Below are positions 17,416-37,705 of a stretch of DNA of 64,000 nt, in pieces. This DNA comes from Amphiscolops sp. MND2022 (taxonomy: Eukaryota). The stretch's first letter is position 1, and the number at the start of each line of letters is the position of its first letter. The position numbers and the translations under genes are program-made. The DNA is taken from contig OZ076409.1 in NCBI GenBank assembly GCA_964187785.1, positions 19,594,001 through 19,658,000 on the forward strand. Direction: 5' to 3'. The notes under the pieces are model-generated. The model was not told where the DNA came from, did no database searches, and was given only the letters and a program-made list of their open reading frames with translations.

Positions 17416-20400
17416 CCAAGACGAGAACGTCTAAAGTCGGCGCCATATCTAAGGCTCAAAAAGCGCAGTTTCCAAAGTATGCGTAGGATGTTTTCATCAA
17501 AAACTCTCGTTTTCAAACCTCCGCCCCTCCTTAGTAAATAGCAATAAAGTTCGGATAAACTGTAACGGCAATTTTTTCTTTGCAAAAAAAGTCGCATAGT
17601 GCCGAAAATGTAAAAGAGGGACCGCTCTGGATTTAACATACATTCCGTTGCTAAATCAAACAAGACGGGATCGTCTCAAGTCGGCGCCATATCTAAGGCT
17701 CGAAAATATTCAAAGAACAACTATTGGAAACATTTGGAAAAATTATTTTCAAAAATTTTTTTTTTGAATTTTTTTTTCGAAAAAAAGTATTTTTTTAGAA
17801 AGTCGCACAATGCCGAAAAACTCAAAAAGAGGCCATTCAGGCTCATTAAACGTTTTTACAAACCGAAAACTTCAAAAAAATGCAAGGGGTCCACCCTTTG
17901 ATAGAATCCGAAAATTTTCGAAAAAGAAGTCGCATAGTGCCGAAAAAAACCCAAAGGAGGGACCCTTTGGTCTCACCTGCTGTACTTTTGGAAGCATAAA
18001 AATATTATGGTTTAGTGCGAGAATCGAACCCCCGCTCTCCGGCTTCAGAAATTTAGTCGAAGATGAACAACAGAACAGATGAACAAATTGTAAAAAGTGG
18101 ACCATTCAGAGTGAGATTGTAGGCTGAAAAAGAAAAAAAACTACCCACTGTAATAGTCGGGCTTTTTTCCTTAAGGGAAAAGGCGCCGACTAAAAACTCG
18201 AAGGGGGACCCTTTGGGTACAATAAAAAATTTCCGAAAAAAAGTCGCACAGTGCCAAAAAAATCCAAATGGGGGACCCTTTGGGCACGTCTGGTTTTGTA
18301 GGTTTCCTTGAAAAAGTAAAGAATGAAAGAGGACCCTTTGGATTAAGTTTGCCTTGGTGGGACTTGGCCTTAGGTGGTTTCAGGATTGTTTCTAAAAAGT
18401 GGACCGATCAGTGTGAGGATTGTAGTCTGAAGAAACAAGACGGGAACGTCTAAAGTCGGCGCTACATCTAAGGCTCAAAAAGCGCAAAACATTTTTTTTG
18501 GAAAAATATCTTGAAATTTTTGAAAAATTTTTTCTTTAGGAAAATGTCGCACAGTGCCAAAAAATGTAAAAGGGGGACTCTTTTTGATTTATAAACTTGC
18601 ATTCTGTTGCAGAATAACAAAAAACTCAAAGGGGGGACCCTTTGGGGACGTTAAAAATTTTCGAAAAAAAGTTGCACAGTGCCGAAAAAAAAATCAAAAA
18701 GGGGGCCCCTTTAGTCTCGGCCGGTTTTTTAGGTTACCTTGAAAAAGTAAAAAATGAAAGGAAGGACCCTTTGCACTCAGTTTGCCTTGGACGGACTGGG
18801 CGCCTTAGGTGGTTTCACGATTGCTTCTAAATAGTGGACCGATCAGTGTGAGGATTGTAGTCTGAAGAAACAAGCCGGAAACGGCCAAGTCGGCGCCAAA
18901 TCTAATGCTCAAAAATAGCAAAAGGACTTCAAAATGTTAAAGTATTCTCTTTTACAGCACCCGAAAAACCCAAAAGTTGAACCGAATTGGCGCACCAGAG
19001 GGGACACTTTGAGATTTTTCATCCATTCTGTGGCAAATCATCAAAAAAAATTGGAGGGGCACTTTCGGTGAAAATTTTTTTTGAAAAAAGTCTCACAATG
19101 CCGAAAAAACTGAAAACTCTGTTTTGTCGGAAAACTCCAAAATAATTGAAGGGGGGACCCTTTGGGGAAATTTTTTTTTCAAAAAAAATTCTCACAGAGC
19201 CGAAAATACTCTAAGGGAGTACCCTTTGGTCCCTTTGAGTTTCTTAGATGATGTTAAGATACTACTTCGCAAGCTTTTGCGCCATTATTTCAAATTTGCT
19301 AAGTAAGAATTGTAAGATTTTAAGATTGTAAGAATTGTAAGAAAAGTGGACCGATCATTGTGAGGATTGTAGTCTGAAGAAAAAAAACAGTCACTGCTTT
19401 AGTCGGGCATTTTTCCCTTAATGGAAAAGCGCCGACTAAAAACAAGCCGGGATCGGCCCAAGTCGGCGCCATATCTAAGGCTCAAAAATACCAAAAGGAC
19501 TTCAAAATGTCAAACTACTGGTGAATTGGGGACTCTTTCATGGAATTTTTTTCAGAAAAAGTCTCACAATGCCAAAAAAACTGAAAGGGGGGACCATTTG
19601 GGATTTTTCAAAATCCATTCTGTCCAAAAAAATCAAAAAATTGAAGGTGGGACCCTTCGGTGAAAAAATTTTTTCGAAAAAAAAGTCTCACAGAGCCGAA
19701 AATACTCTTTGGTCCCGTTGAGTTTCTTAAATGACATAAAAATACTACTTCGTAAGCTAAGAATTGTAAGAAATTAAGAAATTGAGAAATTGTAAGATTG
19801 TAAGAATTGTAAGAAAAGTGGACCATTCAGAGTGAGATTGTCAGCTGAAAAAGAAAAAAAGATAAGTGACAGCTATAGTCGGGCATTTTTCCCTTAAAGG
19901 AAAAGCGCTGACTAAAAAACAGTCACTGCTATAGTCGGGCATTTTTCCCTTAAAGGAAAAGCGCCGACTAAAAAACAGTAACTGCTATAGTCGGGAATTT
20001 TTCCCTTTAAGGAAAAGCGCCGACTAAAAAAGCACTTGAATAAAATCTAAAATCACCAAAAAACCACTAGTGTTTAAAATTCCGGCAAAAAACTCACAGA
20101 GCAGAAAATACTCTAAGGGAGTACCCTTTGGTCCCTTTGAGTTTCTTAGATGATGTAAAAATTTTGCGCCAGTATTTCAAATTTGCTAAGTAAGAATTAT
20201 AAGATTTTAAGATTGTAAGAATTGTAAGAAAAGTGGACCGATCAGTGTGAGGATTGTAGTCTGAAGAAAAACAACAGTCACTGCTATAGTCGGGCATTTT
20301 TCTCTTAATGGAAAAGCGCCGACTAAAATCAAGCCGGGATCGGCCCAAGTCGGCGCCATATCTAAGGCTCAAAAATACCAAAAGGACTTCAAAATGTCAA

Positions 20401-20925
20401 ACTATTGGTGAATTGGGGACCCTTTTATGGAATTTTTTTTCAAAAAAAAGTCTCACAATGCCGAAAAAAACACAAAGGGGGGACCATTTGGGATTTTTCA
20501 AAATCCATTCTGTCCAAAAATATCAAAAAATTGAAGGTGGGACCCTTCGGTGAAAATTTTTTTTTTCGAAAAAAAAGTCTCACAGAGCCGAAAATACTCT
20601 TTGGCCCCGTTGAGTTTCTTAAATGATATAAAAATACTACTTCGTAAGCTAAGAATTGTAAGAAATTGAGAAATTGAGAAATTGTAAGATTGTAAGAATT
20701 GTAAGAAAAGTGGACCATTCAGAGTGAGATTGTCAGCTGAAAAAGAAAATAAAGATAAGTCACAGCTATAGTCGGGCATTTTTCCCTTAAAGGAAAAGCG
20801 CCGACTAAAAAACAGTCACTGCTATAGTCGGGCATTTTTCCCTTAAAGGAAAAGCGCCGACTAAAAAACAGTAACTGCTATAGTCGGGAATTTTTCCCTT
20901 TAAGGAAAAGCGCCGACTAAAAAAG
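17416..20925 (-). mobile_element. Cluster of nested and tandem HINE elements
   Basis: caag..ggaacg....agtcggcgccatatctaaggctc ends at ~17418, 17660, 18436, 18870, 19441 and 20330. Hairpin ends agtcggg..ttttcc..ggaaaa..gcgccgactaaaa at ~18155, 19400, 19875-20030, 20287 and 20768-20925. Confidence 0.75.
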
Positions 20926-20987
20926 CACTTGAATAAAATCTAAAATCACCAAAAAACCACTAGTGTTTAAAATTCCGGCAAAAAACT
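19187..20987. repeat. ~900-bp tandem duplication
   Basis: 19187-20092 is repeated at 20093-20987; the junction is at aaaaaactcacaga. Confidence 0.85.
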
Positions 20988-21400
20988 CCAACAAAACGAA
21001 GTTATCGTTATGCATGTGGATTCTCGTTGTCTCTTCTTGAGGCGCTTTCAGGTAATTCAAGCTAGGTGACAAAGGACAATTCTTGTCACCTCACTTTACC
21101 ATTGGCTAACATGGAAAGGTGTTAGTTATAAGTCACGTGACTACACATAATTTCACCGCAAGATACACTGAAACGCATGATATTTGCGGGCTGCTTAATG
21201 TATGTTGTATAATTTATCGCAATTCCATCGCACCTATGAATCATCCAAATAATAATTGACTATTACAAATAATTAAATGGAAAGGTTACGATGAATTTAC
21301 GATAAAACGAAGCAATTAGTCATGATGAAATTGAATGAAATACGTTTTGTATCTATTTCTTGTTTTGATTGCTCGCAGAGTTTAACAGAACAGATAGTTA

Positions 21401-21714: not shown

Positions 21715-21731
21715 GATAGTTATTTAGCAAT

Positions 21732-22759
21732 TGTCGGAACGTGCATCAAGTTCATTTGATGTGGTAATGTTAGGGGCGTTCCCTTCTCTATCATTAGAGG
21801 ATGACTTTTCATTAGACGATATTTTCTCGGTTAGAGCTAGAACTAGATTCGTCAGTTCACTTATTTGTCTGTTCATTTCCGTAAATCTCTGATTTACGGC
21901 TTGACGTTCTGACTCGCCACTGAAATCCAACAGATTTCCATTGTCGAACTCGTTTATTTGTTCTCTCGTGAGAACTTCAGGGACACTACTTTCACTTTCG
22001 GTATCGCTATGTCGGTCAGGTCGGCACATGTGCGTTCGCTGGTTTTCTGCCACTTGAGATCTGGTATTGACCATTTTGAAGAGATATTGGGTTTTTGAGG
22101 TTTTATTGAGTAATTGAGAGAATGGTTAAGTATTCTAGTGATGAAATTATATCAAACTGAGAGGTACGTATTTAGCAAACTGTTCGTCAAACTATCGCAA
22201 AATCTACTGATGGTACAATTTCACTTGGTAGCAATTATGGCGACGTTGGTCACGTGACCACATCAACCAATCACATCGCTATTTTCGTTCGCACCTTTGT
22301 TAGTAATCGCGCAATATTGTCGCAGCACCAAAATGAAATGTAGTTACGTTGCTATGGTTGCATGACTCAATTTGTATAATGATGTGGTTGCACTACTAGC
22401 ATCATATATGTGAATGGTTAATGTATATAATTGTTTACAGGACTGACTGCACTGAAACGAAATCTGATGATGGCGTATCAGCCACATTACTTTCACTTCT
22501 AATTAAAATTCACGAAATTAATTTAAATGACATACGTAACTAATGTGTGAAATATGGGGGATAATAGTAAAGTTATTTAGGGACTGAATAGAAATGATGC
22601 TTTTTAGCAGATTCTAGTTCGAGTTTTATGATGTGGTTGACTTCACCACATTCTTTCCTTTCATCATCATCCTTTTACTGTTTGCATTTGTTTTGAGCTC
22701 AGGTATGCAGGATGGTTGACCACATCCTTGTTTGATATTTTCATGCGTCAGGCATGACA
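21732..22759 (-). repeat. 3' LTR (1028 bp)
   Basis: Matches 35548-36575 apart from about 3 substitutions seen by eye. Confidence 0.97.
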
Positions 22760-22776
22760 CTCCGGGTCTTTTTTTT
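22760..22776 (-). promoter_or_regulatory. Imperfect polypurine tract
   Basis: Minus-strand AAAAAAAAGACCCGGAG lies directly before the 3' LTR. Confidence 0.6.
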
Positions 22777-23693
22777 GAAAGAGAACGTGTGGTTGGAATG
22801 GTGAATTGTCTCGTTCGGTTGGTTGGAAGATCGGATGCGGCATGCTAGTTAGCAAAGTTGGAATTGCTGTATTCGTTAATTGGATTGAGTGCTCGTGTTG
22901 TTATAGCGACCACATTAGTAGTGGCGAGTTGACTTTGTGGTTGGAAATAGACAGTGATGTTGTTATAGCAACCACATTGACAGCGGCGGATTGATTTCGT
23001 TGCAGGAAATTGTCGGTTTGATTTCCGCTAGCTGCTAGTTCGTCTCGGTTCGGCAATCGAGAGGAAGAAAACTGAAAGTCGCGTGTTGACTGATCCACTT
23101 CGGTAGAGAGTAAATGTAGAGTCGATGTGGCGAGAATAGCCACGTCATCCAAGCGTGCGCGTTGTTTGCAGAGAGAGAGATAGCGTAAGAATGACTTTGC
23201 CGGAAATCAATAACGTGGCAGCGTAATATAATTACTCGGCTTATTCGGTAACTGTTCGGAAGTAAGATGCAGTGGAAATGTCGTGCGCTTCGTAAACAAA
23301 TCTTCGTCGATGCCAAAACCGAGAAACAAATCTTTCTCCATTATATTCATTGGTGCGATTCTTCAGCAGTTCAGTTCGGCCGCGGCTTACTGAGTGACTG
23401 TATCAACTAAGCAAGTAGGCTATAGATAGGATAAGCCAGGGAGTCGTGTTGTGATTTTGACAAATTTTTCGGGTAGGTGTTGACCGTTTTAGAGGAAATA
23501 TTAGTAGACGGGTGACGGGAATTCGGTTGTCCCTTTGAAATTTTCGGGTAGTAACTTTGCATAGATAATGTGGGTGATCAGGCCACATGATCCTTAGAAG
23601 TTAATTTGAATCTCAGTAAATCGCAAACGACTGCATGCTTCCAGATTGTTAGCCTTGATTTTATTCTTTTCAGACTTGCTTTTTATTGCCGTT

Positions 23694-26600
23694 ATGAGTT
23701 CAACGCCTCAAGTGGAGACGTCTCAGGCTGCGACTGATGTGGCTTCTGTTGTGTTAGCTGCGGAGGGAGTGTTCACTGAGTTGGCACAGTTAAGTTTTTC
23801 TTCGGTGGGCAGTGAATTAACAGCTGCTGTGGAGGAGACTCTGTCAGGAGAGCGTCTAGGAAATTGTTGCCGTTTCGCTGGGAAAGTGACTGCTGCCAAT
23901 AAAGAAGTAGCCAACACGTTATTAGAGATCGCTCTATCGAGTGAATTCCGTGAGTACCCTCAATTTCCAATATTTCGTTGTTCTTTTTCTTTTCGAAGTA
24001 GTAACCAGGGGAGGTTATCTTCCTTCAGAGCATCCTGAATTATGATATGCTAGTATGTGGTTTGCACGGTACTGGCTTGTGGCATGTACTTCCCGGGATC
24101 AAATGCTCTGGGTAACTGATGTGGTAGCAAATTAGGCATTATTGTGCTTTTAGAAGAATTGTCACTCGTAGAGATTGTGAGTTTGCTCCGGAGACTGTTA
24201 GCTTCGAAACGGAGTATTGCTGCCAGTGGTGCTACTGAACTAACTGCTGTGGAGGATCGGCTCAGTTCTGTCCTCGGTGATGAGCGAGGTACGTAGTTGA
24301 TTGTTATCCATTAGGTTGAATATACTTCCAGTCGTAGTTCACTGTTAGGATTGGCGGTATCTTGCATGTAGAATGGTGCACAGCATATGGTCAAAATTAA
24401 GTTGTGTTGTAGGGACTGTTACAGGCTTGCCTGTAACTATTGCTGAGTTGGAGTCATCCTTTCAGCGGATGACGAAAGAATTGGCAGAGACTGTCAAAGC
24501 GATTGTCGATTCCAAAATGGGCGGGCTGGGATCAGTCTGTGCGTTGTCCGTCGAGGAGTTCATCGGAAAGTTGAAAACAGCAATGGAGCACTTGGCTGCG
24601 TCTTCTGTGCCTGGTGGATCTGTCGAGCAAGCTGTGACAAGTGTGCCGTCAGTGCGGTTGGAAGCACCCGGGAGTCCTTTGGATGCCAGTAGTTCACGAT
24701 CTGTCAGCTTGAGTCAAGTGTCCGATGTTCCGACTGCTTTCGCTTGTGTCCGTTCAGTGGCTTCGAAAGAGGAGGGTATCTCCACATCCGCTACTGCTAA
24801 ACCTGGTAAGAAATCTCAGAAGATCATGGGAGGGGTTTTAGTATTAGCACTTAGGTTAAGGATTACGATTTACGACACAAGTTTTTTTTTGGAGTTTGCT
24901 GTTTTCTATTGTAGGTCGCAATAAGAAAGTGAAGACGTTGAAGCCGGCCTATTTCGTTTCTGGTGTGGTGGGGACCTTTGTTGGTTTCCCACGACATAAG
25001 CGCGTAGTCGACGGGTATGCCAGGTGCCTGTTGTACAAAGTCGACCTCAGCATTGCCGGACGTGGTTTGTCTTCCTTGTGGGAGCATTGGCGGGGTGTAG
25101 AACATACCCGTGTGGAGCAGAAGTTTCGCATCATGATGCAGATGCCGTTACTTGATAAGGCCTGTCGGCCAGTGTCAGCAGAAGAAGACAGACGGATTCG
25201 GCGAGCACGGATGTCTGAACCGCCTGTGTTTTTGGAGTCAGAGCTGAGTCTCAGTGTTGATGAGAGGGTTGCCATTGAAGAGGCTGAAGCGGTTGCTGGA
25301 GGAAAACCTGTTTTGGGCGAGGAGAGCGTTTCATTCCTGTGGTCGAGCCAATTTGTGAGCAGTTTCTGTAGTACTACCACATTCAGAGATGTGATGCAAA
25401 TGGTGGAGTCGCGGCGGGACACCATGAATACGGAACTGCGTGTTGAGTGCCGCACCTCAACCTACACACGATGTAAGGTATGTATCTACATAAGTTCATG
25501 TCGATTTCTGTTTGTGTGTGATGAGGTCATCTAAGGGTTGTGGCTGTATGTTTGGGTGTGCAACTATGCGGCTATAGTTGAAATTGTGCAGAAAGAGGTT
25601 GATTTTTTTTGTTTACAGAGTTTGGTTCACTATGGATTGTATCGGTTCGTCGTGGAGCAGTTAGATGAACTGATAGCTCGTGGTAAAGGCGCGAGTGTCA
25701 GTATCCGACGACATGAAGCAGATTGGTTGTGTGAGTGTCATGTGGTGTGCGACTACGCTGTGAAAACAATCGTTCTTGGTGTGGTGGTCGGCGGGACCGG
25801 CTGGGAGAAGCGAATGCTCGATACTGTTGTTCCGGTGTTGTTGAGTCTGCCACATGCTTCTTCTATGAGTGCGTACAGCACGGAGTCAGATACCTGCATT
25901 GGATACGCGCTAGCAGCTTCAGTCGGGATCGTTGACCCTTTGGTTGTGGGTCGAGTGACGCAAGTGTGGTTGTTTGACCTTTTTAGGAAGCACTTTCTTG
26001 CTGAGTTCGTGGGTCTGGATCCCCTCAGCGTTCTGGACTATTTGCGTGTTCGACTAGCCTCCGTGGTGCAGGAGAGAGTTCTGGATCGTTTGCCTCGTTT
26101 GAAACAAGTGAGTATTTTGAACTATACATGTATAGTATGTGGTATATCAAAGGACATTTGATCCAATTTTTTTTGGAGAGGAGGTGTTACTTTGCGGGGT
26201 CTACTTATTTTTCTTGCGTGGATGTTTCTTTTGTTGTTAAAGTTTATACTAGTCGAAGGAAGTGATGTGGTTTCGTTGGCTGCTTTGTGTGCAGAAGTTG
26301 TCGAATACTGGAACGACCTTGCAGTCTATTTTGGAACTCATCGCCCCCATGTGACTTCTGAGTTGCGCCTGGTGACTCCGCTTGAGGGGCAGGTATTCGA
26401 CGATGCCATGATGCGCCCTCGTTTTGCCGTTCTACGTTTCATTTTGGATTTGTGTTAGTATGGTTTTTTTGTAATTGAGTTCAGCTAGGATGTTGGTGGC
26501 TTTTGTCGACTTAACTCTTTATCCCCCCTTTTTTTTAAATGGTACGTTCAAACTAATTATGAGCATGGGTTAACGTGTGTTGCGTTATGTTTACAGTGGC

Positions 26601-27951
26601 CGAAACGTGTCCTCGATTGTGTAGGAGCAGCAGTGATAGTAACATGGTTGCTGAGCGTGAACTGTCACAATTCGTTCGGAGGCTGATGCGTTTAGTGTAT
26701 CCTGAATCATCCATACCTGCTGAGTATGAAGTGGATTCTCTCCTGAAGCCAGTGGATCGCGATTTCTCTACAATAGACGAGAGTCTGTACCAACTGCATT
26801 TTGGTCAGTATTTCCGGTATGACGTTCGCACACAACTCCCGTTCTTCTACCGGTCAGTGCAGAAATTGTTGGGAGTGATATGCACAGAGCTTGTGGGGAC
26901 GTGGCAATGTGGAGCTATTGACCACTTCAGTCTGACTCCTTTCGATCCACTGTTGGTGCATGGTGGGTCTGATGATCGCTGTATTGATGCTTTGGTCGGA
27001 ACCTGTGCTACTCTTTCTCGTTATAATTTAATGAGCGACACCATAGCTGCGAATACCCTGAGACAATATCGGGAAGTGGCCCAATTTTTCAAAACCAAGT
27101 GGACCTTGATTGAAGGCATGCCTGCAGTGGATGATGTAATCACGATGTGGTTCTCGTATCCTTTTTGGTCTCGATGTCAAGAGTTGTTGTCAGTGCTGAA
27201 CCTATTGTTTGGACTTGCAGTTGTCGGAACTTACAACCCTAACATCAGTGATGAGTTTGGTACTGCTATGTCTGTTGATACTCAGCGTTCTAGTCTGCAT
27301 CTTGTCAGGAGTTGGTTTTCGAAGATGTTTGCGGGTCATACCCGTCAATCGCTCACTGGGCTACTACGTGTTTGTTCTACTAGTGATATGCAAGTGTCCC
27401 GATTAACAGATGAGGCGCGGTGCAGGCCTTGGGATCGGTTAATCAAATCAAGTCTGAGTGAAGCTCTCTCTTTGGGAAATGCTGTATTGTCCAATGATCT
27501 AACTACTACCTCAACTGTGCCTATTGATGATTATCGATCGAATGTCTTGGCTCAATTGGATCTTGTGGAGGTATTGAGTCCCCCACGAGCTGGACGGCGA
27601 AGCAGTCCCATTGGTGTCAGTAGTGCTAAGTCAAAAAAGAGTGCACGGGGGCAGATTGATGTGACCTTGGGCATTAGTGCGCCGTTTTCCGTTCAGACAG
27701 CCCCCAAGAAGAAGAGATCCGCCGTTAAGAATCCTAGAGGTGCGAGACGTTGTACGCCTTCAACTAGTCGTGGTGGTGTCCTTACGAGACAGTCAGTTGG
27801 GCGTAGAACAGGAGGGATTCCCCGAGGAACGAAACACTTGCAGTTAGCTAATGTTGTTGGCTCCGATGACGATTCAGCTAGTGAAGTAGTTGTGAGCGGG
27901 AGGAAACGACTGAGCCGTATTCACTTGGATTCGTCTGGATCAGGCAATTAA
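23694..27951 (+). CDS. Spliced 7-exon gene, ~1133 aa, probably derived from a hAT transposase; antisense to the retrotransposon. Exons: 23694-23949, 24154-24288, 24413-24805, 24915-25477, 25619-26107, 26243-26453, 26597-27951
   Basis: Donors GTGAGT, GTACGT, GTAAGA, GTATGT, GTGAGT and GTTAGT; T-rich AG acceptors. Intron phases 1,1,1,0,0,1 all join in frame, giving 3402 nt with no internal stop. Zinc-finger-like motif at 25025-25105 and a basic C-terminal tail (PKKKRS). Confidence 0.88.
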
Positions 27952-29523
27952 ATGTATGCGAACTTGTCTACCGTGAAACTTATTTAGAAACTGTTATCTT
28001 TTCTGTTTGTTTTTTGGTCATAATTCACTACAGTGAATTATTTGTGCTATTCCGATTCATTTTTGGTCAGTGTAGATTTGCTATTTGCTCGATGTGATTT
28101 AATTATGTTACATTTTGATTTACATTTTGTGTGACGGCCTATGATTTGGTCTACATTTAGCTGATTGGTCGGCTAGTTTGCATGTTTTTCATGTGAATTT
28201 ACATGTTGACTGTGTTATACTAATTTTTTGCGTGTGAACTTCGTTAGCTGGTTTCAAAATGTTGGAGCGATAGGCTCAGCTTTGCAAGTCATTCAAGTTC
28301 TAGTAGAGTAGTCGCCTAGGTAACTACCATTGAAAAGCTCTCACTCACCAAGTGCCATTCTCGTCACAGCGTTGTTCATGATTATGGCTTACATGTGACA
28401 GAGGTGGAAACTTGATGGGTGGGTGGAGTCGCTCAACTCCTACAGATGATTTGAACTTTTTGAGTAGCTGCTTTTATAGTGCTCTAGTTGGTTGTTTGAC
28501 AGGTGTTTACTAACTTAAGTGTCAATTTAATCTGTCAATTCTTGTCGAGTTTTACATATGTTTATTTCTCATGTAGCGTTATTCTTGACGTCGTCATCGT
28601 TGATGTGTGTCATGCGACGTCATCACTCGTGTCGTGTGTCAAGTGTTAACGTCAATTTTAATGGTAGATGGGTTTCCCCATGGCCATTAAACTTTTTGAT
28701 AAGGGGTGGTGTGTACCATACCTTGTTACGAATCTTCGGTGATGTAGTGAATATGACTGCATGTTTTTGTTGTTCTGTCCTTCCTGCCGCGAGGCGAAGC
28801 CTACGAATCAACAGTAAGAACAAAAGTGTCGTGATCTAAATTCAATGTAGAGGTGACGACTGCATTTTACTGTCCTAGGAAAGGTTTTATATGTTGTTCG
28901 TTGGATTGGGAAGGTTATTTGCCGTCGCAAAAACCCATACAAAACTAGCACCGAATCCACTTGCTAAAGAGCAAGCTTCATCTGAATGTTTGCACAACCA
29001 CACAGACGCGTTTTTGATGACGCACCCACACAGCCGAACCACATCATGATTTCAGAGGCGGAAGTGCGGGACTAGATTTTGGCGGTGTAACTTAACTAAG
29101 GCAGCTATCTCTTTTGCATGTTCGGTTGTGTGCTATTACTTTTGCTAAAATGGTTTATTTCTGTCGTCATAAGGTTGGTAAGTACAGAATTGCGAAGCAA
29201 TTCCTTTGAAAGCGTGTGGTTGGGGGGTTTCTGTGAATTGCATAATTTAGTAGCTCGATTGCATGTGTTTTACATGTACTTAATAATTTCCGGTTAACGT
29301 GATGTGGTGTGTATGACTGCATTACATGTAGTTACTTTTGCGCTCAGCTGTCTCGGTAGAGAGTAACAATTTACTCTGCCGGTAAACTCAAGTATGTCGG
29401 ACAGTGAGTATCAGTCGTCACTGAATGGCGTAAAGTAGACTAAATAATTTAAAGGTATGATTGATGCATGTGGTGTTGTAGACTACATTCAGTTGAATGT
29501 GAAAATGAAATTTTAGGAAAATT

Positions 29524-32500
29524 TTACCAAAGGCTTGTTGATTTGCGTGGCATGAATTTTAAGAGTGTGGGCTTTGCTTGCAGTTCATGAACAAGAAAGT
29601 TGTCAAACGTTTTAGGCACGGGTGCCTCGCGAAGGCTGTATCGGGTAATGCTATTTCGTGTAATTGGTTGGGGTGTTTCGGCAGATGATGCGGTCGATTC
29701 CGCATCATTATTTGGATGGCTTTGTTGCTCAGGCAGTTGATCAGAAGACGGTGTGTCCATTTCATTTGTTTGAATTTCAGCTTCAGATCGATGTGTACTG
29801 TCGGTGTGGACGGTCTCAGGTAGAGGGTTATCCAGAGATGGTACCTCATGAACCCTTTTGTGTTCGTAATAGATTGCTCCATGCTCAGAGTCGACTGTGT
29901 CAGTTTCATTTGTGTCTAGTTCTACTGTGTTTTCAGCGGGAGGTAGCGTTTCGGATGCAGGTAGATTATCGTTGAATATTGATTGATCGTCGATTGCGTC
30001 AGGATCACTATAGTATCGTGATGCATCGTCGTGTATGTCTTCGATGGGATCGTGTGGTACGAATGGGCGAAGCCGCATTCTATGTACGCACTGTGTTCGG
30101 AATGTACCAATTTTTCTGATGATATAGTTTGACTGTGACAGGACTTTAATTACCTTGTAAGGTCCTTCCCATTTGAAAGAATTGAAAGGGATTTTTTCGG
30201 ATTGCTGGCCAATTTTGGGGTTCAGTAAAAAGACAAAGTCGTTTACTTTTAAAAGTGACGCTTGCGCTTTCCTGTCATAGTGCGACTTGTATTTATGGAA
30301 AGCACGGATTATGTTGGTGTGTGTCTCTTTGAATTTCGCATTCAGGTTATCCACTAACGTCTTCGCGTCAACAGCGTTTCGAGGCGGATTGAGGGGGTTG
30401 CTGAACTTCAGATCTAGTGCATTATATGGTACTCGACCGTGGAAGACTTCAGTTGGAGAGCACTTCAGAGTCTGGTGGTAAGTCGTGTTATGTGCCATCA
30501 CAGCGAGATTGACGTATCGGTCCCATTGTGGGCGGTCCACGGAAACGTTTATTTTCAGGACTTGTTTCAAGCGTTGATGTGATCTCTCGATCATCCCAAT
30601 TGTTTGGGCATGTTTAATCGTTGCAAGGGAGACTTTGATCCCGGCTTTGTTCATCAGTTCAGTTATGACTTCGCACGTGAATGCAGAGCCTTTGTCGGTG
30701 ATATTGTGTTTCGGTACATATGCATGTTTTGTGAAAATGTCTAGTAGAGCTTTGACGACGGATTTCGTGTCAGGTTTGCGTATCGGGATAGCAAACAGAT
30801 AACGTGAAAAATAGTCACAGGCCGTCAGAATGTGTGAGTACCCATTAGATCGCGGCAACTCACCTACGAGATCGATTTCAAGAACATCCTCAGGACCGTT
30901 GCAGGGGTCATAAATTGGTTCGAGTGGAGGTATCAGAGTGTTTGGTTTTGCAGGTTTCGTTTTGATACATTCTTGGCAGTTGTTTACAAACTCTTGGACC
31001 TTTTCGGTTAAGTTTGGGACGTAGTACCTTTTCCTTAGTTCACTTAGCATTTTGGAAGCGCCAGGGTGTCCCTGCATGGGGTCGCCATGCATCGTCCTGA
31101 TTATGGCTTCCGTAGTTTCTGGAGGAACTACAATTTGTCGGTAAGCTAGTTTTCCTACGTTGTCAAAAAACTGCCTGTACAACACGTTGTTCACTACTTC
31201 AAGTCTTTTACGGTTCTTGAAAAGATTTTGGAAAAAGGTACTTGCAAAGTTCACTTGGTTCGGAGGGGTTTCCTGGACGGTAAGAATCCTAATTACACGT
31301 TGAACGTCACTGTTTTCGCCTTGAGCCTTAACAATTTCTGAAGTCCCCAAAGGGCATACCTGATTTACCATATGAACCTGGTTCCGTTGGTAGAATCGGG
31401 TGAAGAAAAGGGTCGGGTCGGAAGGCGTCACAAATGGTTGTATCTGGGACCTGATCTCACTGATGCGTCTATCGTACTGTTCCCCGTCTTCGTGGTGTTG
31501 CCGTGGGAACATTGCCAGTAGCGTTTGCATCGTCGGATTTGATGATGTGGTCGCACCAGGTACATCGTGGTCTTCTGGGATGTACTCCTCCTCGTCATCG
31601 TCTTGTTTAGGCGTTTTGGATGCCAGGTCGATTTCAACTTTAAAGACTGGTATTTCGTCGTGGAGTTTGAGGTGGATCCTGTCTTTCGGTCTAATGTCAA
31701 TTCTGGACAGGTAGTCGGCTGCTGGGTTTTCGACGCCAGGTACATGGGCCAGGACGAAGTCGAATTGGATGGCCTGGTCGCAGTAGTTCCACAGTTTCGG
31801 AGGTATTCGCTTTGACTGGAAAAATCTTGTGAGGGCTTTGTTGTCAGTCATGACAATTGTTGGCTTCTTCACTCCCCACAAGATATGAGCGAATTCGTCG
31901 AAGGCGAAGTGCATGGCCAGGAACTCTTTTGCATACATCGTGAGTGACATCTGGCCCTCAGTAAACCTTTGTGAACCAAAGGCTACTGGTGCGTATGACT
32001 TCGTTGGTCCATCATTCGTCTCGGTGTAATCCTCGATCAAGAGAACGTATCCAGCTGCATGCTCGCTAGCATCGCACATGATCACGAGCTGTTTGTCCGG
32101 AAGTGTTAGTCGCAGGGACATCTTGGCTGCATTTGCGAGGTTCTCATTGATGTCGAACATGGCATCTTTGTGGACTTGAGTTAGTTCGAATTTGACGTCT
32201 TTCTGCAGGAGTTTGTAGAGTGGTACAAGTTTTTCAGCTAGGCATGGGATGTATTGGCGGTAGAACTGGACGAATCCAATGTACCGTTGCAAGGACTTCA
32301 CAGACGTTGGTAGTTTGATGTTTTTCAAGAACTTGTCACTTTTTTCCTCGATGGGAGCAACTCCCTTGGAGGTGATGCTTCGTCCCAGAAATTCTATCTC
32401 GGGGTGTCCGAAAGCGCATTTAGCCATTGACAGTTTCAGGCCAGCTTGTCTGATTTTGATGAACACAGCCTCAATATTGTCGACGAGCTCTTCGACATTG

Positions 32501-34464
32501 TTGGCTGCAATGCCGATGTCGTCGACGTATTGGGCACATTTGTCAGCCTTGACCAAGGGGTCCAAGTACTCTCGAACAGTACTGTTGAAGGCTGATAGTG
32601 ATCGGTTCAATCCTTGGGCTAGTCTGAGGTAGGCGAACGTCCTACTTCCAAAGTTGAAAGCGAGTAACTGGACTGACTGTTCATCTGCCATCTGCAAGCA
32701 GTGATATGCTTGTGAACAGTCCAGTTTGCAGAAGTATCGCTTTCCTGCCATGTGCTGCGCTGCATCTGCCATCGTCGTCACCGGATGATTGTGTTGATTG
32801 TAGTCGTTCTTCAGTAGGTGATTGATTCTTCTCAGATCTACGAGGATTCTAAGCTTCCCATTCGGCTTGCGTTGGGCGAAGATGGGTGATGAGTACTTGC
32901 TGTACGGCAATGTTGTGATTATGCCGTACTCCTGCATCAACGCCAATTCAACGAGTAAGTCGTCCTTCAGGTTCGTCGGTGTGGGTAAGCTTTGGGCATA
33001 GACTGGTTCGTCGTGTTTAGGAGTCAACTTTATCTTGAATTCGGTGTTGATTCCTATGTCCAGTCTTTGTCTGGCGAAGATGTCATGGTACTTGACCAAT
33101 AGATCCTCAATTTGTTGCTTTTCGTGAGGGTTCAGTATTGATTGTTCCCACTGGAAGTTTGCCAGAAATTCATGCCGTTGTTCTACGCTTGTTGTTGGAT
33201 CCAGTTTCTCCTCTGCCCTGAGTTTGACGATTTCGTCATAGATTCGTTTTTCAATCCTGTTGAGTTTTGATGGGTCGTCACAAGTCTCAGGGGTAGGGTA
33301 CCATCGTCTATCTGATTTGGTAGTCGGATCCTGGAAGATTTGGTTCAAGACAGCTTCAGCATCATCTGGGTACTGTGAAATCAGGTGTAGTTGGTGATTG
33401 GTCATCGGTTGAAGGTTGTTAGCTTGCTTCGGTGTCATTATCTTGAATGATGCTACCGGTGTACCCACATTGATGGTGATTTGGTAGTCGAGTGGGTTTG
33501 TGATCTGGACATGAGTCCGCCCCTCCTGGGTCTCGCTGAGAGCCGGAGAAACCAACAGGTGTGAGCGTTTTTCGAACGCTGGTAGTCCTTCGGCAGTTCC
33601 AGTGATGTCACCTAGATCGCGTTCAATCACCACTGGGACGAACACTTGTTGGTTGGGTTGGATCACAGTCTTCTGGGTTGTCTTCAGTTCTCTTAGTTTG
33701 TTCTTGAATTTCCCGTTGACTGATCGCAGTTGGAGGGTGATGTCCGGGAATTTGACGATGTTGTTGGCCAGGTCTAGCGTAACGGAGTATTTTTTGAAGA
33801 AAGACATTCCTATAAGTACGTTCCCCATCGTCGGGAGGACCATGAATGTTTCTTCAAATATTTTGCCGCCGATGAAGAATCGAAGCAGGACTTGCTTCTT
33901 GACTGGGACGATGTTTCCGTTGGCAATCTGCACTTTGAACTCCGGGGCAGGGAGTTCCTGGAGGAGGGCGGCTGGGTGGGCTGCAAGGATGCGGCGGAGT
34001 TCCGCTTCTGAGAGAGCACTCTGGATTGCTCCCGTGTCAAGTAGGCCGAAGTTTTCGTATTCTCGGATTTGGAGTGGTACGTAGAGCATTCTGTCCTTTT
34101 TATTGAGTTGGAGGGTGGCACTCAACTGGCGTATTTCGTACTTCGGCTTCTTCTGTTGGTTTTGTGGTTTTGGCGATGTGGTTCGTTTGTCATCATTTGG
34201 TTGGTCAGGCAGTGTGCATTCTGAACTCGGCTGTTGGATGTTGTGGACTTCGGGTCTTCGCTTGGTCTCCCTTGGTTTAATGGTGTAGTTGTCAGTTGAA
34301 TGTCTTGTGATGACAAAGTTAGTAGTCTCCTTAGTATAAGTTGGAGGACGGGACTGCCACCCCGTATGGTTTCCAGTATGTAGTCGAGTCTGAGGAGTAG
34401 TTTGTTGGTGTTGGTTTAGTAGCGCACTTTTGTATGTTTGAGGAGGATGACGTGGCTTTAGAAG
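29524..34464 (-). CDS. pol: Gypsy Pol polyprotein (protease, RT, RNase H, integrase), expressed by -1 frameshift
   Basis: LDTGA; YVDD; CDAS..EFLA..TDNKAL..ADYLSR; HHCC (H-x6-H..CQEC); D,D,E (DLVG, TDKGS, IERSH); WEGPY. The frame stays open upstream of the track start (34125) as far as the slippery site. Confidence 0.97.
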   Translation of the reverse strand, partial: LLKPRHPPQTYKSALLNQHQQTTPQTRLHTGNHTGWQSRPPTYTKETTNFVITRHSTDNYTIKPRETKRRPEVHNIQQPSSECTLPDQPNDDKRTTSPKPQNQQKKPKYEIRQLSATLQLNKKDRMLYVPLQIREYENFGLLDTGAIQSALSEAELRRILAAHPAALLQELPAPEFKVQIANGNIVPVKKQVLLRFFIGGKIFEETFMVLPTMGNVLIGMSFFKKYSVTLDLANNIVKFPDITLQLRSVNGKFKNKLRELKTTQKTVIQPNQQVFVPVVIERDLGDITGTAEGLPAFEKRSHLLVSPALSETQEGRTHVQITNPLDYQITINVGTPVASFKIMTPKQANNLQPMTNHQLHLISQYPDDAEAVLNQIFQDPTTKSDRRWYPTPETCDDPSKLNRIEKRIYDEIVKLRAEEKLDPTTSVEQRHEFLANFQWEQSILNPHEKQQIEDLLVKYHDIFARQRLDIGINTEFKIKLTPKHDEPVYAQSLPTPTNLKDDLLVELALMQEYGIITTLPYSKYSSPIFAQRKPNGKLRILVDLRRINHLLKNDYNQHNHPVTTMADAAQHMAGKRYFCKLDCSQAYHCLQMADEQSVQLLAFNFGSRTFAYLRLAQGLNRSLSAFNSTVREYLDPLVKADKCAQYVDDIGIAANNVEELVDNIEAVFIKIRQAGLKLSMAKCAFGHPEIEFLGRSITSKGVAPIEEKSDKFLKNIKLPTSVKSLQRYIGFVQFYRQYIPCLAEKLVPLYKLLQKDVKFELTQVHKDAMFDINENLANAAKMSLRLTLPDKQLVIMCDASEHAAGYVLLIEDYTETNDGPTKSYAPVAFGSQRFTEGQMSLTMYAKEFLAMHFAFDEFAHILWGVKKPTIVMTDNKALTRFFQSKRIPPKLWNYCDQAIQFDFVLAHVPGVENPAADYLSRIDIRPKDRIHLKLHDEIPVFKVEIDLASKTPKQDDDEEEYIPEDHDVPGATTSSNPTMQTLLAMFPRQHHEDGEQYDRRISEIRSQIQPFVTPSDPTLFFTRFYQRNQVHMVNQVCPLGTSEIVKAQGENSDVQRVIRILTVQETPPNQVNFASTFFQNLFKNRKRLEVVNNVLYRQFFDNVGKLAYRQIVVPPETTEAIIRTMHGDPMQGHPGASKMLSELRKRYYVPNLTEKVQEFVNNCQECIKTKPAKPNTLIPPLEPIYDPCNGPEDVLEIDLVGELPRSNGYSHILTACDYFSRYLFAIPIRKPDTKSVVKALLDIFTKHAYVPKHNITDKGSAFTCEVITELMNKAGIKVSLATIKHAQTIGMIERSHQRLKQVLKINVSVDRPQWDRYVNLAVMAHNTTYHQTLKCSPTEVFHGRVPYNALDLKFSNPLNPPRNAVDAKTLVDNLNAKFKETHTNIIRAFHKYKSHYDRKAQASLLKVNDFVFLLNPKIGQQSEKIPFNSFKWEGPYKVIKVLSQSNYIIRKIGTFRTQCVHRMRLRPFVPHDPIEDIHDDASRYYSDPDAIDDQSIFNDNLPASETLPPAENTVELDTNETDTVDSEHGAIYYEHKRVHEVPSLDNPLPETVHTDSTHRSEAEIQTNEMDTPSSDQLPEQQSHPNNDAESTASSAETPQPITRNSITRYSLREAPVPKTFDNFLVHELQAKPTLLKFMPRKSTSLW

Positions 34465-34470
34465 TTTTTT
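34464..34470 (-). promoter_or_regulatory. -1 ribosomal frameshift heptamer A AAA AAC
   Basis: ccA AAA AAC ttc taa at the end of gag; the -1 frame is exactly the pol frame and is open for more than 110 codons before the protease. Confidence 0.85.
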
Positions 34471-35529
34471 GGATCTTCTACGTCATCGTGTCGTTCTGTT
34501 TCCTCTGCATTTTCGGTGTCATCGTTGGGGTTGTGGGACATCTCATTGGCATTGGCGTTGTAGACCCTGTTGTTGGTCTGTTTGAAGTCCCTTCTAAATT
34601 GTCGGTTTTCCTCGGTGGACTGCTTAGGATACGGGACGCTGCGGTAGGCTGATGTCGCCGTATTCCTATAGTAGCAATCTCGGGCGGAGTGTCCCACTTT
34701 GCCACAGATTTGGCATACAAGTTTGGCGTTGTATTTCGGCCTGATCTCTTGAGGTTGGGCTGGTTGTTGCTGGTTTTGGCCCTGGGGTTTGGTTGGTGCT
34801 TCCTCCCGGAGGCGTTTCCTGCACTCAGCCCACTTGTGACCATGTATTCCGCAGTGGCGACATTGGCCATCAAACTTTCGTTTTGTCTCCCTGGGTTGCT
34901 GGGTTTGGACGTTAGATGTCTGAGGTGTGGTTACATTCGGCTGGGGTGCGCTTATCTGATTGAATGGTTGCGCATTGGTTGTGTTAGGAATGAGCTGCGC
35001 ATATTGACATCTGCGCTGCACAAATATCCTGATCTCCTCCATCGATGCATCGTGTTTGCCTGCCATGGCCAAATCGTTTTGCATTTGGACTGGGAGTTTC
35101 GCAAATAGAAACGTCTCTGTATTATCACTTATCACTGGACTTGTCCCCAAATGCCTGCTTTGCGACCTTTTTGAACTTGTTGAGGAAGTCATTGAAGGTC
35201 TCTGCTGTAGGGTCGTAGCGCATTTGGTCAAATTTCAATGGCATCGTTGCGTAACAGGCTCTGGAAATATGTCAGTTTCTGTTCTTCTGACAATTTGTGT
35301 TGGTGTGGCCTGAGGTGGTTGAGCAGCAGGTGCTCAAACTCGTTGTACTTTTCCCGGTTTCCGCGGAATAGTGGAACTTGTGTGTGCAATATTTTTGGAT
35401 GTTGCACCGTGTCCGTCATCGTGTCCCTCAGATGATGGATTTCAGTGACAATGTCATCGTACTGCTGGGCGGATGACTGAGGGTATTGTGAGGTGGATTG
35501 TCGTGGTGGGTTCGGTAGGTAGTTGGTCG

Positions 35530-35547
35530 TTGGAACTCCTGTCACCA
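35530..35547 (-). promoter_or_regulatory. Primer binding site (tRNA-Leu-like), lying within the gag reading frame
   Basis: TGGTGACAGGAGT follows the 5' LTR end (..CGACA) with no gap; it is one mismatch from the Leu-type TGGTGTCAGGAGT. Confidence 0.7.
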
Positions 35548-36575
35548 TGTCGAAACGTGCATCAAGTTCATTTGATGTGGTAATGTTAGGGGCGTTCCCT
35601 TCTCTATCATTAGAGGATGACTTTTCATTAGACGATATTTTCTCGGTTAGAGCTAGAACTAGATTCGTCAGTTCACTTATTTGTCTGTTCATTTCCGTAA
35701 ATCTCTGATTTACGGCTTGACGTTCTGACTCGCCACTGAAATCCAACAGATTTCCATTGTCGAACTCGTTTATTTGTTCTCTCGTGAGAACTTCAGGGAC
35801 ACTACTTTCACTTTCGGTATCGCTATGTCGGTCAGGTCGGCACATGTGCGTTCGCTGGTTTTCTGCCACTTGAGATCTGGTATTGACCATTTTGAAGAGA
35901 TATTGGGTTTTTGAGGTTTTATTGAGTAATTGAGAGAATGGTTAAGTATTCTAGTGATGAAATTATATCAAACTGAGAGGTACGTATTTAGCAAACTGTT
36001 CTTCAAACTATCGCAAAATCTACTGATGGTACAATTTCACTTGGTAGCAATTATGGCGACGTTGGTCACGTGAACACATCAACCAATCACATCGCTATTT
36101 TCGTTCGCACCTTTGTTAGTAATCGCGCAATATTGTCGCAGCACCAAAATGAAATGTAGTTACGTTGCTATGGTTGCATGACTCAATTTGTATAATGATG
36201 TGGTTGCACTACTAGCATCATATATGTGAATGGTTAATGTATATAATTGTTTACAGGACTGACTGCACTGAAACGAAATCTGATGATGGCGTATCAGCCA
36301 CATTACTTTCACTTCTAATTAAAATTCACGAAATTAATTTAAATGACATACGTAACTAATGTGTGAAATATGGGGGATAATAGTAAAGTTATTTAGGGAC
36401 TGAATAGAAATGATGCTTTTTAGCAGATTCTAGTTCGAGTTTTATGATGTGGTTGACTTCACCACATTCTTTCCTTTCATCATCATCCTTTTACTGTTTG
36501 CATTTGTTTTGAGCTCAGGTATGCAGGATGGTTGACCACATCCTTGTTTGATATTTTCATGCGTCAGGCATGACA
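35548..36575 (-). repeat. 5' LTR (1028 bp), containing the gag start codon at 35890
   Basis: Direct repeat of 21732-22759; the boundary is fixed by the TSD and PBS. Confidence 0.97.
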
Positions 36576-37705
36576 GCAATATCTAGAGAAATATTTAGTG
36601 CTTTGGTTCAAAATGAAACAAGATGTATGAAAAATCTCAAATTTTCATTTTTCGTCTCATCTTTCATTTTCTCATTTTTCTTAGTTCATTGGCTATAGTT
36701 TATAAGGCTATGGCTTATAAGCTTGCGCCCTAAGACTTTGTTGTTAGACGATAGTACCGTGCGGAAAATATCCGAATGAAAAGAAATTATTCAGTAAAAC
36801 AAGAGTTCAAAAGAATTGTCTCTATATTTCATATGGTTACGTTAGCAATGATTTGAGTAAGAGTCGAAACCGTAACAATCAACCTGACAAGATTTCTAGA
36901 GGACTTATTCTGGGAAAGCTCTAATTTCATCAGCAATTATTGATACAATATACCTAAGATTTAAAGCTCAAACTGCAAGAAATATGTTGCCACTGAAATG
37001 TATATTTGGGAAAACAAGCTGAACAGGCAAAACAGGCATCGTTGAAGTATATTTACTTTCAGATGGTATAAAATAACGAGCATTTTGTTGTGCTTTGAAT
37101 ATTTTATGATGTCGCCTTCCGACCGCGCAAACAAGAGCTTTTCTGTGCGTGATTGAGAGGGAAAGTAGCTTGAACAGTTTATGGAAAGATGGGTACTGTT
37201 GTGCTTAATTCTGTGATGTCGAACGTTTGCGCACTATTAAGCCGATACATATCGATCTGTTTAGCAGTACTGCTAATGTATCAGTTAATTGCTCAATACC
37301 ACATAATATAACTCTAAGAGAGGTACGTAAAGTAGAAATAAGCTTCCTCCTACGGTTGTACACAAGGGAACTCCAGACTTCTTCTACTGATGCGTCCTGG
37401 GACACAATACCGTGATGAATTACCTTCATTAGAACTGCACGAGGTAATTTCCTCAAAGGGTATCATTACTGAATCCCCTGTCATATCTATTCTTCCCATA
37501 TTTCGACCAAGATAATTCCTAGCTTACCCCTTGCCATAAAAGGAAGCGCTTAGTCGTCGACTATGTACAAAATTTGGGCAGGCATCAAACTCAAGTACAG
37601 ACAATATAAACTGTGCACTGCAGTTCTATGATGCAGCAGCCATCATTTACCGCAAATTTCGTTACACAAGTCAATTCCCCCTTCTCTCCGTTTGTTAAAT
37701 TCACC

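Follow-up and report, generated by a model that had tools for sequence, protein, structure and literature searches.

Antisense open reading frames (ORFs) located between pol and the 3' long terminal repeat (LTR), designated aORF-3R, have been described in plant retrotransposons, namely maize Grande (gene23), rice RIRE2 and Silene Retand, and in the case of Grande both a promoter of its own and a nuclear protein have been reported (PMC7264820, PMC11963269). In fungi, the Boty-like Ty3/gypsy elements of Botrytis cinerea possess an additional antisense gene called brtn (PMC8365987, PMC7264820), and these sources treat the functions of plant and fungal antisense ORFs as still open (PMC7264820, PMC11963269, PMC8365987). 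The animal counterpart named in this literature is found in deltaretroviruses, which carry antisense genes near their 3' end, HBZ in human T-cell leukemia virus type 1 (HTLV-1) and APH-2 in HTLV-2, whose products are nuclear regulators (PMC11963269). In the present work we analyzed a stretch of 64,000 nt from Amphiscolops sp. MND2022 (hereafter the window; contig OZ076409.1, positions 19,594,001 to 19,658,000 of the forward strand), which harbors on its minus strand a young Ty3/gypsy retrotransposon of 14,844 bp (21732-36575) and, on the opposite strand of this element, a gene split by six introns. Our analyses show that an animal Ty3/gypsy clade carries this dedicated seven-exon, 1133-codon gene opposite to gag-pol. 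An earlier reading made from the letters of the window alone (the sequence-only reading) had held antisense ORFs to be known mainly from plant Tat-type elements, a statement that leaves out the fungal brtn, whose source paper is reportedly that of Zhao et al. 2011, Virology 417:248.

Long open frames follow one another on the plus strand in the interval from pol to the 3' LTR, and the six intron lengths put forward by the sequence-only reading join them into a single open frame that starts with the ATG at 23694, comprises 1133 codons and ends with the stop codon at 27949-27951 (Table 1). As had been proposed, the gene is antisense, sits between pol and the 3' LTR and converges on pol, the two stop codons being 1572 nt apart; the exon of 135 nt, too short to appear in the list of ORFs, was located at 24154-24288. 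It is worth noting that 32 GT-AG combinations with those same six intron lengths leave the frame open, so that the GT-AG rule alone proves little and picks out no single model. The combination that we chose shows the donors GTGAGT, GTACGT, GTAAGA, GTATGT, GTGAGT and GTTAGT, in that order, pyrimidine tracts ahead of the acceptor AG, and a G+C content of 0.34-0.42 in the introns versus 0.48-0.53 in the exons, and this predicted combination is confirmed by the relatives described below.

When the animal's own genome (1.07 Gb in 1929 contigs) was searched at the DNA level with the 4258-bp segment that spans the gene, 26 near-full copies with identities of 94-99% were obtained, besides three truncated copies and a subfamily at ~80% identity. 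The animal nature of the host, supposed by the sequence-only reading, is borne out by 114 cadherin-domain matches in this genome, several of them within open frames of 1000-1800 amino acids (aa). In all 26 near-full copies the gene occupies the same position, with flanks aligning with the window element; the ~80% subfamily has kept it too, and so have two families that stand further apart, as expected if the gene belongs to the element. We aligned 30 loci to count splice sites and frames. Of the 26 full copies, 25 have retained every one of the 12 splice dinucleotides, as has the 80%-identical copy L030; exon lengths in most copies are the same or off by multiples of three, and intron lengths are off by one to a few bases in nearly every copy. 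Over 25 copies, we counted 42 indel events in 3402 nt of exons (27 being multiples of three) and 187 in 856 nt of introns (16 multiples of three), i.e., 0.49 versus 8.7 events per kb per copy, an 18-fold difference in density. The spliced frame is fully intact in seven of the 26 copies, and in the window copy both the antisense frame and the pol frame are open.

The exons do not evolve neutrally. Between the window copy and L030, differences at codon positions 1, 2 and 3 of the exons amount to 152, 126 and 372 (p=3e-37), while the introns, cut into pseudo-codons, give 55, 66 and 56 (p=0.51), so the third-position excess is found in exons only. Ratios of nonsynonymous to synonymous substitutions (dN/dS) were obtained as pairwise Nei-Gojobori estimates between real copies. 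Within subfamily A the ratio reaches 0.82 and reflects, as expected, decay after insertion; between subfamilies it falls to 0.42 (A-B), 0.30 (A-C) and 0.18 (A-D), and the A-D estimate stays below 0.25 in every protein segment, with its minimum of 0.08 in the first part of exon 4, where a putative zinc finger is encoded. These comparisons show that the predicted reading frame, splice sites and protein sequence are held by purifying selection in the replicating lineages.

The occurrence of the gene is not restricted to close copies of the window element. In subfamilies B, C, D and D2, full elements carry it between pol and the 3' LTR, and the full-length representatives of B, D and D2 have LTR pairs of their own that are 99.3%, 96.9% and 93.3% identical, respectively. 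With exon 7 as the query, a protein search of the genome listed 96 matches whose identities range from 100% to 43% and cluster near 78%, 68%, 60-63% and 45-48%; most of those listed are open frames of 450-500 aa starting a few residues from the exon start. For the distant families we read 7.5 kb of L039 and the 3' neighborhood of L040. L039, a member of family G in the 45-48% group, has exons 4 to 7 in the same order, with the acceptor of intron 3 and both ends of introns 4, 5 and 6 at the same codon positions, GT and AG included, at protein identities of 52% (exons 4-6) and 47% (exon 7) between family G and the window gene; downstream of these exons, and encoded by the other strand, comes the convergent C-terminus of its pol (78% identical). 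In the more distant L040, pol is 54% identical over residues 1264-1644 and converges ~2 kb behind the last exon. In the window, a plus-strand skew rich in G and T runs evenly through gene and pol and ends at the LTR borders, the flanks being different. Some peculiarities of these copies may be recorded here. Further distant families of the last exon form copy sets with identical scores and open frames (e.g., seven places with a 449-aa frame) and look very recently amplified. L039 contains a tandem duplication of ~1062 bp (1536-1910 and 2598-2981) that repeats exon 6 and flanking intron parts. One subfamily-D copy (G000:C10:25524500-25544000, L033+L034) has an internal duplication of 575 bp in its pol region, 97% identical and ~3.9 kb apart, and a pol frame broken into several pieces.

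Among 1.84 billion representative proteins, 148 are relatives of exon 7, and word-based protein searches gave 109 relatives of exon 4 and 24 of exon 5. The relatives of exons 4 and 5 are unnamed ORF fragments, every one with ENA as its source; ten relatives of exon 7 that were looked up belong to ENA clusters, except for three short JGI/IMG members of one cluster, and bear no informative name, the three short members being called "hypothetical protein". The conserved part of the relatives starts and stops at the exon borders of the window gene: in those of exon 4, conservation stops at ...CQ, which is followed by V (the GT donor) and then by unrelated residues. As at least one relative is, by our own reading of the alignments, identical to an ORF of locus L039, many of these records may come from the window's own species. 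P0068 and P0009 have best own-genome identities of 28% and 44%; lacking a close match there, they indicate that the family reaches beyond the window genome. Relatives of the gene were not found in JGI metagenome contigs or in IMG/VR.

The comparison of subfamilies has led us to consider the gene as part of a larger module. The gag-pol regions of A, B and C are 73-87% identical in most bins of 500 nt and their LTRs are nearly unalignable (46-62%), yet the three subfamilies are 95-99% identical across ~23100 to ~28250, a block that comprises the gene with ~600 bp upstream and ~300 bp downstream. Between A and B the similarity extends to the pol stop at ~29520, and subfamily D is ~80% identical everywhere. 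Because introns and synonymous sites are similar as well, slower evolution cannot explain the shared cassette. Judging from these identities, the lineages must have passed the cassette to one another by recombination in recent times, most likely, as we infer, by template switching between co-packaged RNAs or by gene conversion. Since lineages with unrelated LTRs carry the same cassette, the protein is unlikely to act through lineage-specific LTR sequence; chromatin, host DNA or the cassette itself would be a more fitting site of action than such an LTR.

Turning to the predicted product, no exon matches a Pfam family at E <= 0.01, including any bZIP family. Exon 4, the best conserved part, encodes a CX2CX16HX5H motif in which, among 30 aligned sequences, H57 is invariant and C37, C40 and H63 reach at least 90% conservation. 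The Pfam family most frequently hit by exon 4 relatives is zf-BED (PF02892), with eight of 30 and a best E of 0.0061, a language-model search of the ESM Atlas sets the exon 4 region beside CGGBP1-like and zf-BED clusters at scores of 0.90-0.93, and a structural model of exon 4 places, at low confidence, a hairpin (34-37, 42-45) followed by helices at the finger, so that these weak signals agree; a search of PDB sequences with the exon 4 profile gave a best E of 0.37. On this evidence the motif is probably, though by no means securely, a BED-type DNA-binding finger. The window copy encodes Tyr at the second conserved Cys of the finger, a putative zinc ligand (25034-25036); this is found in one of the 29 copies covering the site and is a private change after insertion. 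The AlphaFold model of exon 7 has a mean predicted local distance difference test (pLDDT) score of 60 and is helical over residues ~20-330, with pLDDT ~80-90 over 20-210, before a basic tail that is modeled as disordered from residue 333. Exon 7 had no usable match in the ESM Atlas, and a XerD row (Z 4.8) in its structural comparison was dropped as noise.

We favor, with a probability of roughly three in four, the reading that a selected seven-exon gene of the element encodes a trans-acting nuclear protein with a BED-type finger; that the gene is a real, selected, element-borne and spliced one is, taken separately, very likely. Transcription would start from a promoter of its own within ~600 bp upstream of the ATG, and the transcript would be spliced by the host. 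As the introns are antisense to the genomic RNA, they pass unchanged through reverse transcription into each new copy, and they are indeed kept in all copies. The product would be a nuclear protein that binds DNA through the finger of exon 4, which would be followed by a large helical domain of no recognized fold and then by the basic tail, and it would serve the element in trans. It is tempting to hypothesize that this accessory protein regulates transcription or the chromatin state at copies of the element, a role that we put first only tentatively and would not back at even odds; our second guess is that it tethers or targets integration. We consider it rather doubtful, although worth stating, that this is the first animal LTR-retrotransposon clade with a regulatory gene of its own, comparable to those of complex retroviruses: a spliced antisense gene with a BED finger, long kept (the pol C-termini of its carriers have diverged to 54% identity) and moving between lineages as a cassette. 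If that were true, the shared cassette would fit repeated sweeps of a favored allele through recombination of co-packaged RNAs, and such sweeps would be expected if the protein were in an arms race with host silencing or served any related element.

Several observations weigh against this reading. Transcription, promoter and the six junctions are predicted from sequence only, and no canonical AATAAA was seen near the stop codon, where reading by eye found just an ATTAAA overlapping the stop itself. Exon and intron diversity are alike within the youngest subfamily, as expected of differences that arose after insertion; being post-insertion decay, such differences leave selection visible only between lineages. 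In the A-D comparison (window copy versus L030) the synonymous divergence (0.44) is about twice that of the introns (0.23), an unexplained excess that could stem from intron columns dropped as unalignable, from CpG decay or from constrained introns. The window copy itself may be non-functional, given the Cys-to-Tyr change and a gag in two frames. As regards the finger, none of the 30 exon 4 family members reaches Pfam significance for zf-BED and the window exon 4 is unmatched; Atlas scores near 0.9 arise also for 4-10 of 100 shuffled proteins according to the tool's own note; and the exon 4 model has a pLDDT of 54, falling below 50 over the finger. Outside the finger no Pfam family was detected, the 34 exon 7 relatives searched yielding four single matches at chance level; Foldseek of the exon 7 model against PDB gave nothing at E <= 0.001 (best 1.2), and VIA-align against 48,161 chains reached a best Z of 5.8, which according to the tool is common for helical models.

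The question then arises as to whether the gene serves the element at all. BED fingers are common in host proteins and in hAT-derived genes, which would suit a single past transduction, in antisense orientation, of all or part of a host gene that has merely been carried since then without any role in the life cycle. Gene capture by LTR retrotransposons, and transduction as the origin of aORFs, are discussed for plants (PMC7264820), but according to the same source captured passengers occur in one or a few copies, whereas the present gene keeps its place throughout the families examined, including the one with the most diverged pol C-terminus, and shows purifying selection along the whole protein. 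Since selection on a gene of a multi-copy element acts only via propagation of the element, we regard a mere passenger as improbable. Less probable still is a function at the RNA level alone, with a transcript pairing with the sense RNA (giving double-stranded RNA, small RNAs including Piwi-interacting RNAs, or transcriptional interference) and a frame that is incidental: non-coding antisense transcripts of retrotransposons are known, e.g., for micropia (cited in PMC7264820), and convergent transcription would overlap if the transcripts were long enough to span the distance between the two stop codons, but the third-position bias, dN/dS values of 0.08-0.25, in-frame exon indels and conserved splice sites would all be left unexplained. 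An RNA-level role alongside the protein may exist.

The two remaining alternatives concern the nature of the segment itself. hAT transposases begin with BED fingers, and the weak BED signals of exon 4 would be in keeping with a hAT-like DNA transposon inserted into the retrotransposon, an outcome that the sequence-only reading named as refuting it. Inverted repeats that would bound such an insertion are missing around the segment in the window, the three inverted pairs found being all elsewhere; no hAT dimerization or transposase family was recognized in any exon or in the 34 exon 7 relatives, with the reservation that distant relatives could escape Pfam; and no copy or family lacks the segment, which has the strand skew of the retroelement. 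A nested transposon is hence hardly credible as the present state, while it is conceivable but unlikely that, as a matter of origin, a hAT or ZBED gene supplied the finger long ago. Finally, one may argue that there is no gene, only a single decayed ORF whose introns are artifacts of bridging frequent GT and AG dinucleotides. The 32 frame-keeping combinations speak in this sense, as does the fact that three of the six intron lengths are divisible by 3, two of those introns holding a single in-frame stop. Against it, the introns are poorer in G+C, accumulate far more indels, mostly of lengths other than multiples of three, and lack codon periodicity, the GT and AG are invariant, and in distant relatives protein conservation is lost exactly at the intron borders. 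Splice-site conservation, the contrast in indels and periodicity, and conservation up to the exon borders refute this explanation, to which we give practically no weight.

Table 1. Coordinates of the element, its antisense gene and the exchanged cassette (positions in the window)
Feature	Position	Strand	Support or remark
Target-site duplication (TSD) GCAAT, left	21727..21731	.	5 bases directly adjoining both LTRs
3' LTR, 1028 bp, TG..CA	21732..22759	-	3/1028 mismatches vs 35548-36575
Putative polypurine tract, minus strand AAAAAAAAGACCCGGAG	22760..22776	-	Read from sequence; role suggested by position
Tandem ~62-nt unit, two copies, internal region near 3' LTR	22896..23017	.	75% identity
Cassette, upstream part: putative promoter and 5' untranslated region (UTR)	23100..23693	+	A/B/C identity rises from ~0.55-0.65 to 0.86-1.00 at ~23100; promoter role putative
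Exon 1	23694..23949	+	ATG at 23694 kept in 24/26 full copies and L030
Intron 1, 204 nt, GTGAGT...TTTTAG	23950..24153	+	204-212 and 290-295 nt among copies; GT/AG kept
Exon 2, 135 nt	24154..24288	+	Frame and copy alignment
Intron 2, 124 nt, GTACGT...TTGTAG	24289..24412	+	Splice signals, copies
Exon 3	24413..24805	+	In-frame +3 in most B and C copies
Intron 3, 109 nt, GTAAGA...ATTGTAG	24806..24914	+	Conservation of relatives begins on exon 4 side; acceptor position kept in L039
Exon 4, most conserved part of the protein	24915..25477	+	109 related ORF fragments, 54-97% identity
CX2CX16HX5H motif, probable BED-type zinc finger	25025..25105	+	Conserved ligand columns, weak zf-BED matches, Atlas, dN/dS 0.08
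Intron 4, 141 nt, GTATGT...TTTACAG	25478..25618	+	Position kept in family G
Exon 5	25619..26107	+	24 related ORF fragments
Intron 5, 135 nt, GTGAGT...TTAAAG	26108..26242	+	Splice signals, copies, family G
Exon 6	26243..26453	+	Relatives
Intron 6, 143 nt, GTTAGT...TTTACAG	26454..26596	+	Splice signals, copies, family G
Exon 7: helical domain, then basic disordered tail	26597..27951	+	148 related proteins; stop 27949-27951
Cassette, downstream end: putative 3' UTR	27952..28250	+	A-C identity falls from >=0.92 to ~0.5 at ~28250; UTR role putative
pol (protease, reverse transcriptase, RNase H, integrase), 1652-aa open frame	29524..34482	-	Convergent with the antisense gene
gag region, two frames in window copy	34458..35941	-	35228-35941 and 34458-35234; zinc knuckle in the latter
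Putative primer-binding site, minus strand TGGTGACAGGAGTTCCAA	35530..35547	-	Read from sequence; role suggested by position
5' LTR	35548..36575	-	Pairs with 21732-22759
TSD GCAAT, right	36576..36580	.	Repeats left TSD

A direct-repeat search and base-by-base comparison recovered the LTR pair with its three mismatches and TG..CA ends, and GCAAT lies directly on both sides, so the near-identical LTRs and perfect TSD announced by the sequence-only reading are both there. Reading of the sequence further revealed an A8-rich purine run abutting the 3' LTR and, directly inside the 5' LTR on the minus strand, TGGTGACAGG..., i.e., a start in TGG... Pfam assigns to the pol frame, in residue numbers, gag-asp_proteas at 146-231 (weak), RVT_1 at 538-700, RT_RNaseH at 795-902, Integrase_H2C2 at 1119-1177 and rve at 1196-1288, which is the Ty3/gypsy order of domains; a zf-CCHC zinc knuckle was found in a gag frame. 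The gag of the window copy consists of two overlapping frames (237 and 258 aa), and that of a subfamily-B copy is a single frame of 469 aa. The tandem pair of 62-nt units sits between the 3' LTR and the antisense gene. Just outside the element, on its 3' LTR side, a repeat block with a period of ~890 bp (18367-20988) comprises several families that are 89-98% identical. On the other side, a second and different integrase-bearing frame (39868-41668, minus strand; rve and Integrase_H2C2) probably belongs to another LTR element in a strongly strand-skewed region (39-44 kb), and a 305-aa frame at 59805-60722 (minus strand) contains DUF5641, a domain of the C-terminal part of BEL/Pao-type pol proteins.

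A layout familiar from plants and one fungal family is now met in an animal, in the form of a large, multi-exon and clearly selected gene. Hundreds of copies in many families provide a natural comparative series, and the probable DNA-binding finger offers an experimental handle. Introns placed antisense ride through reverse transcription here in nature, which is the very principle of engineered retrotransposition reporters. That the cassette is exchanged suggests that the accessory gene and the replication machinery are under separate selection, and if they are, the benefit that such a gene brings to its element would become testable in an animal. Genome annotation will mistake the exons for orphan genes of the host, by the hundreds, if their place in a transposon goes unrecognized.

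With respect to the systems known so far, the gene shares with the aORF-3R class (Grande, RIRE2, Retand and Boty) its frame opposite to gag-pol, its place between pol and the 3' LTR and an occurrence that covers most or all copies as well as related families. It differs from the plant members in its animal host, in a much larger protein (1133 aa), in the absence of any Transposase_28 or PMD family from exons and relatives as far as Pfam detects them, and in the exchange of the cassette between lineages; it has six introns, and introns go unmentioned in the main text of PMC7264820 and PMC11963269. The resemblance to plant aORFs, as judged from the predicted proteins, is one of layout and not of descent. 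The brtn gene likewise is an antisense accessory gene of a Ty3/gypsy element outside plants, but its host is a fungus and its protein is small and unrelated to the one reported here. HBZ mRNA is spliced. It originates from the 3' LTR and encodes a small bZIP protein, whereas the present gene is wholly internal, has six introns and no bZIP signal, and resides in an LTR retrotransposon without env. In CX2CXnHX5H spacing, in weak matches to zf-BED and in Atlas neighbors the protein resembles hAT transposases, ZBED proteins and CGGBP1, but here no transposase or hAT dimerization domain follows the finger and the gene sits in a retrotransposon. Among animals, Juno, Vesta and other elements of bdelloid rotifers are LTR retrotransposons with captured third ORFs across families; these ORFs are of env, DEDDy, GDSL, CC and TM types, and the main text of PMC5408684 contains neither "intron" nor "opposite" and uses "antisense" for small RNAs only. 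Our literature search, which left most subscription journals and Repbase reports outside, did not turn up a spliced antisense gene in any LTR retrotransposon of animals. The layout itself was known; the novelty lies in the kingdom of the host, in the family of the protein, in a structure with several introns and in a cassette that lineages exchange.

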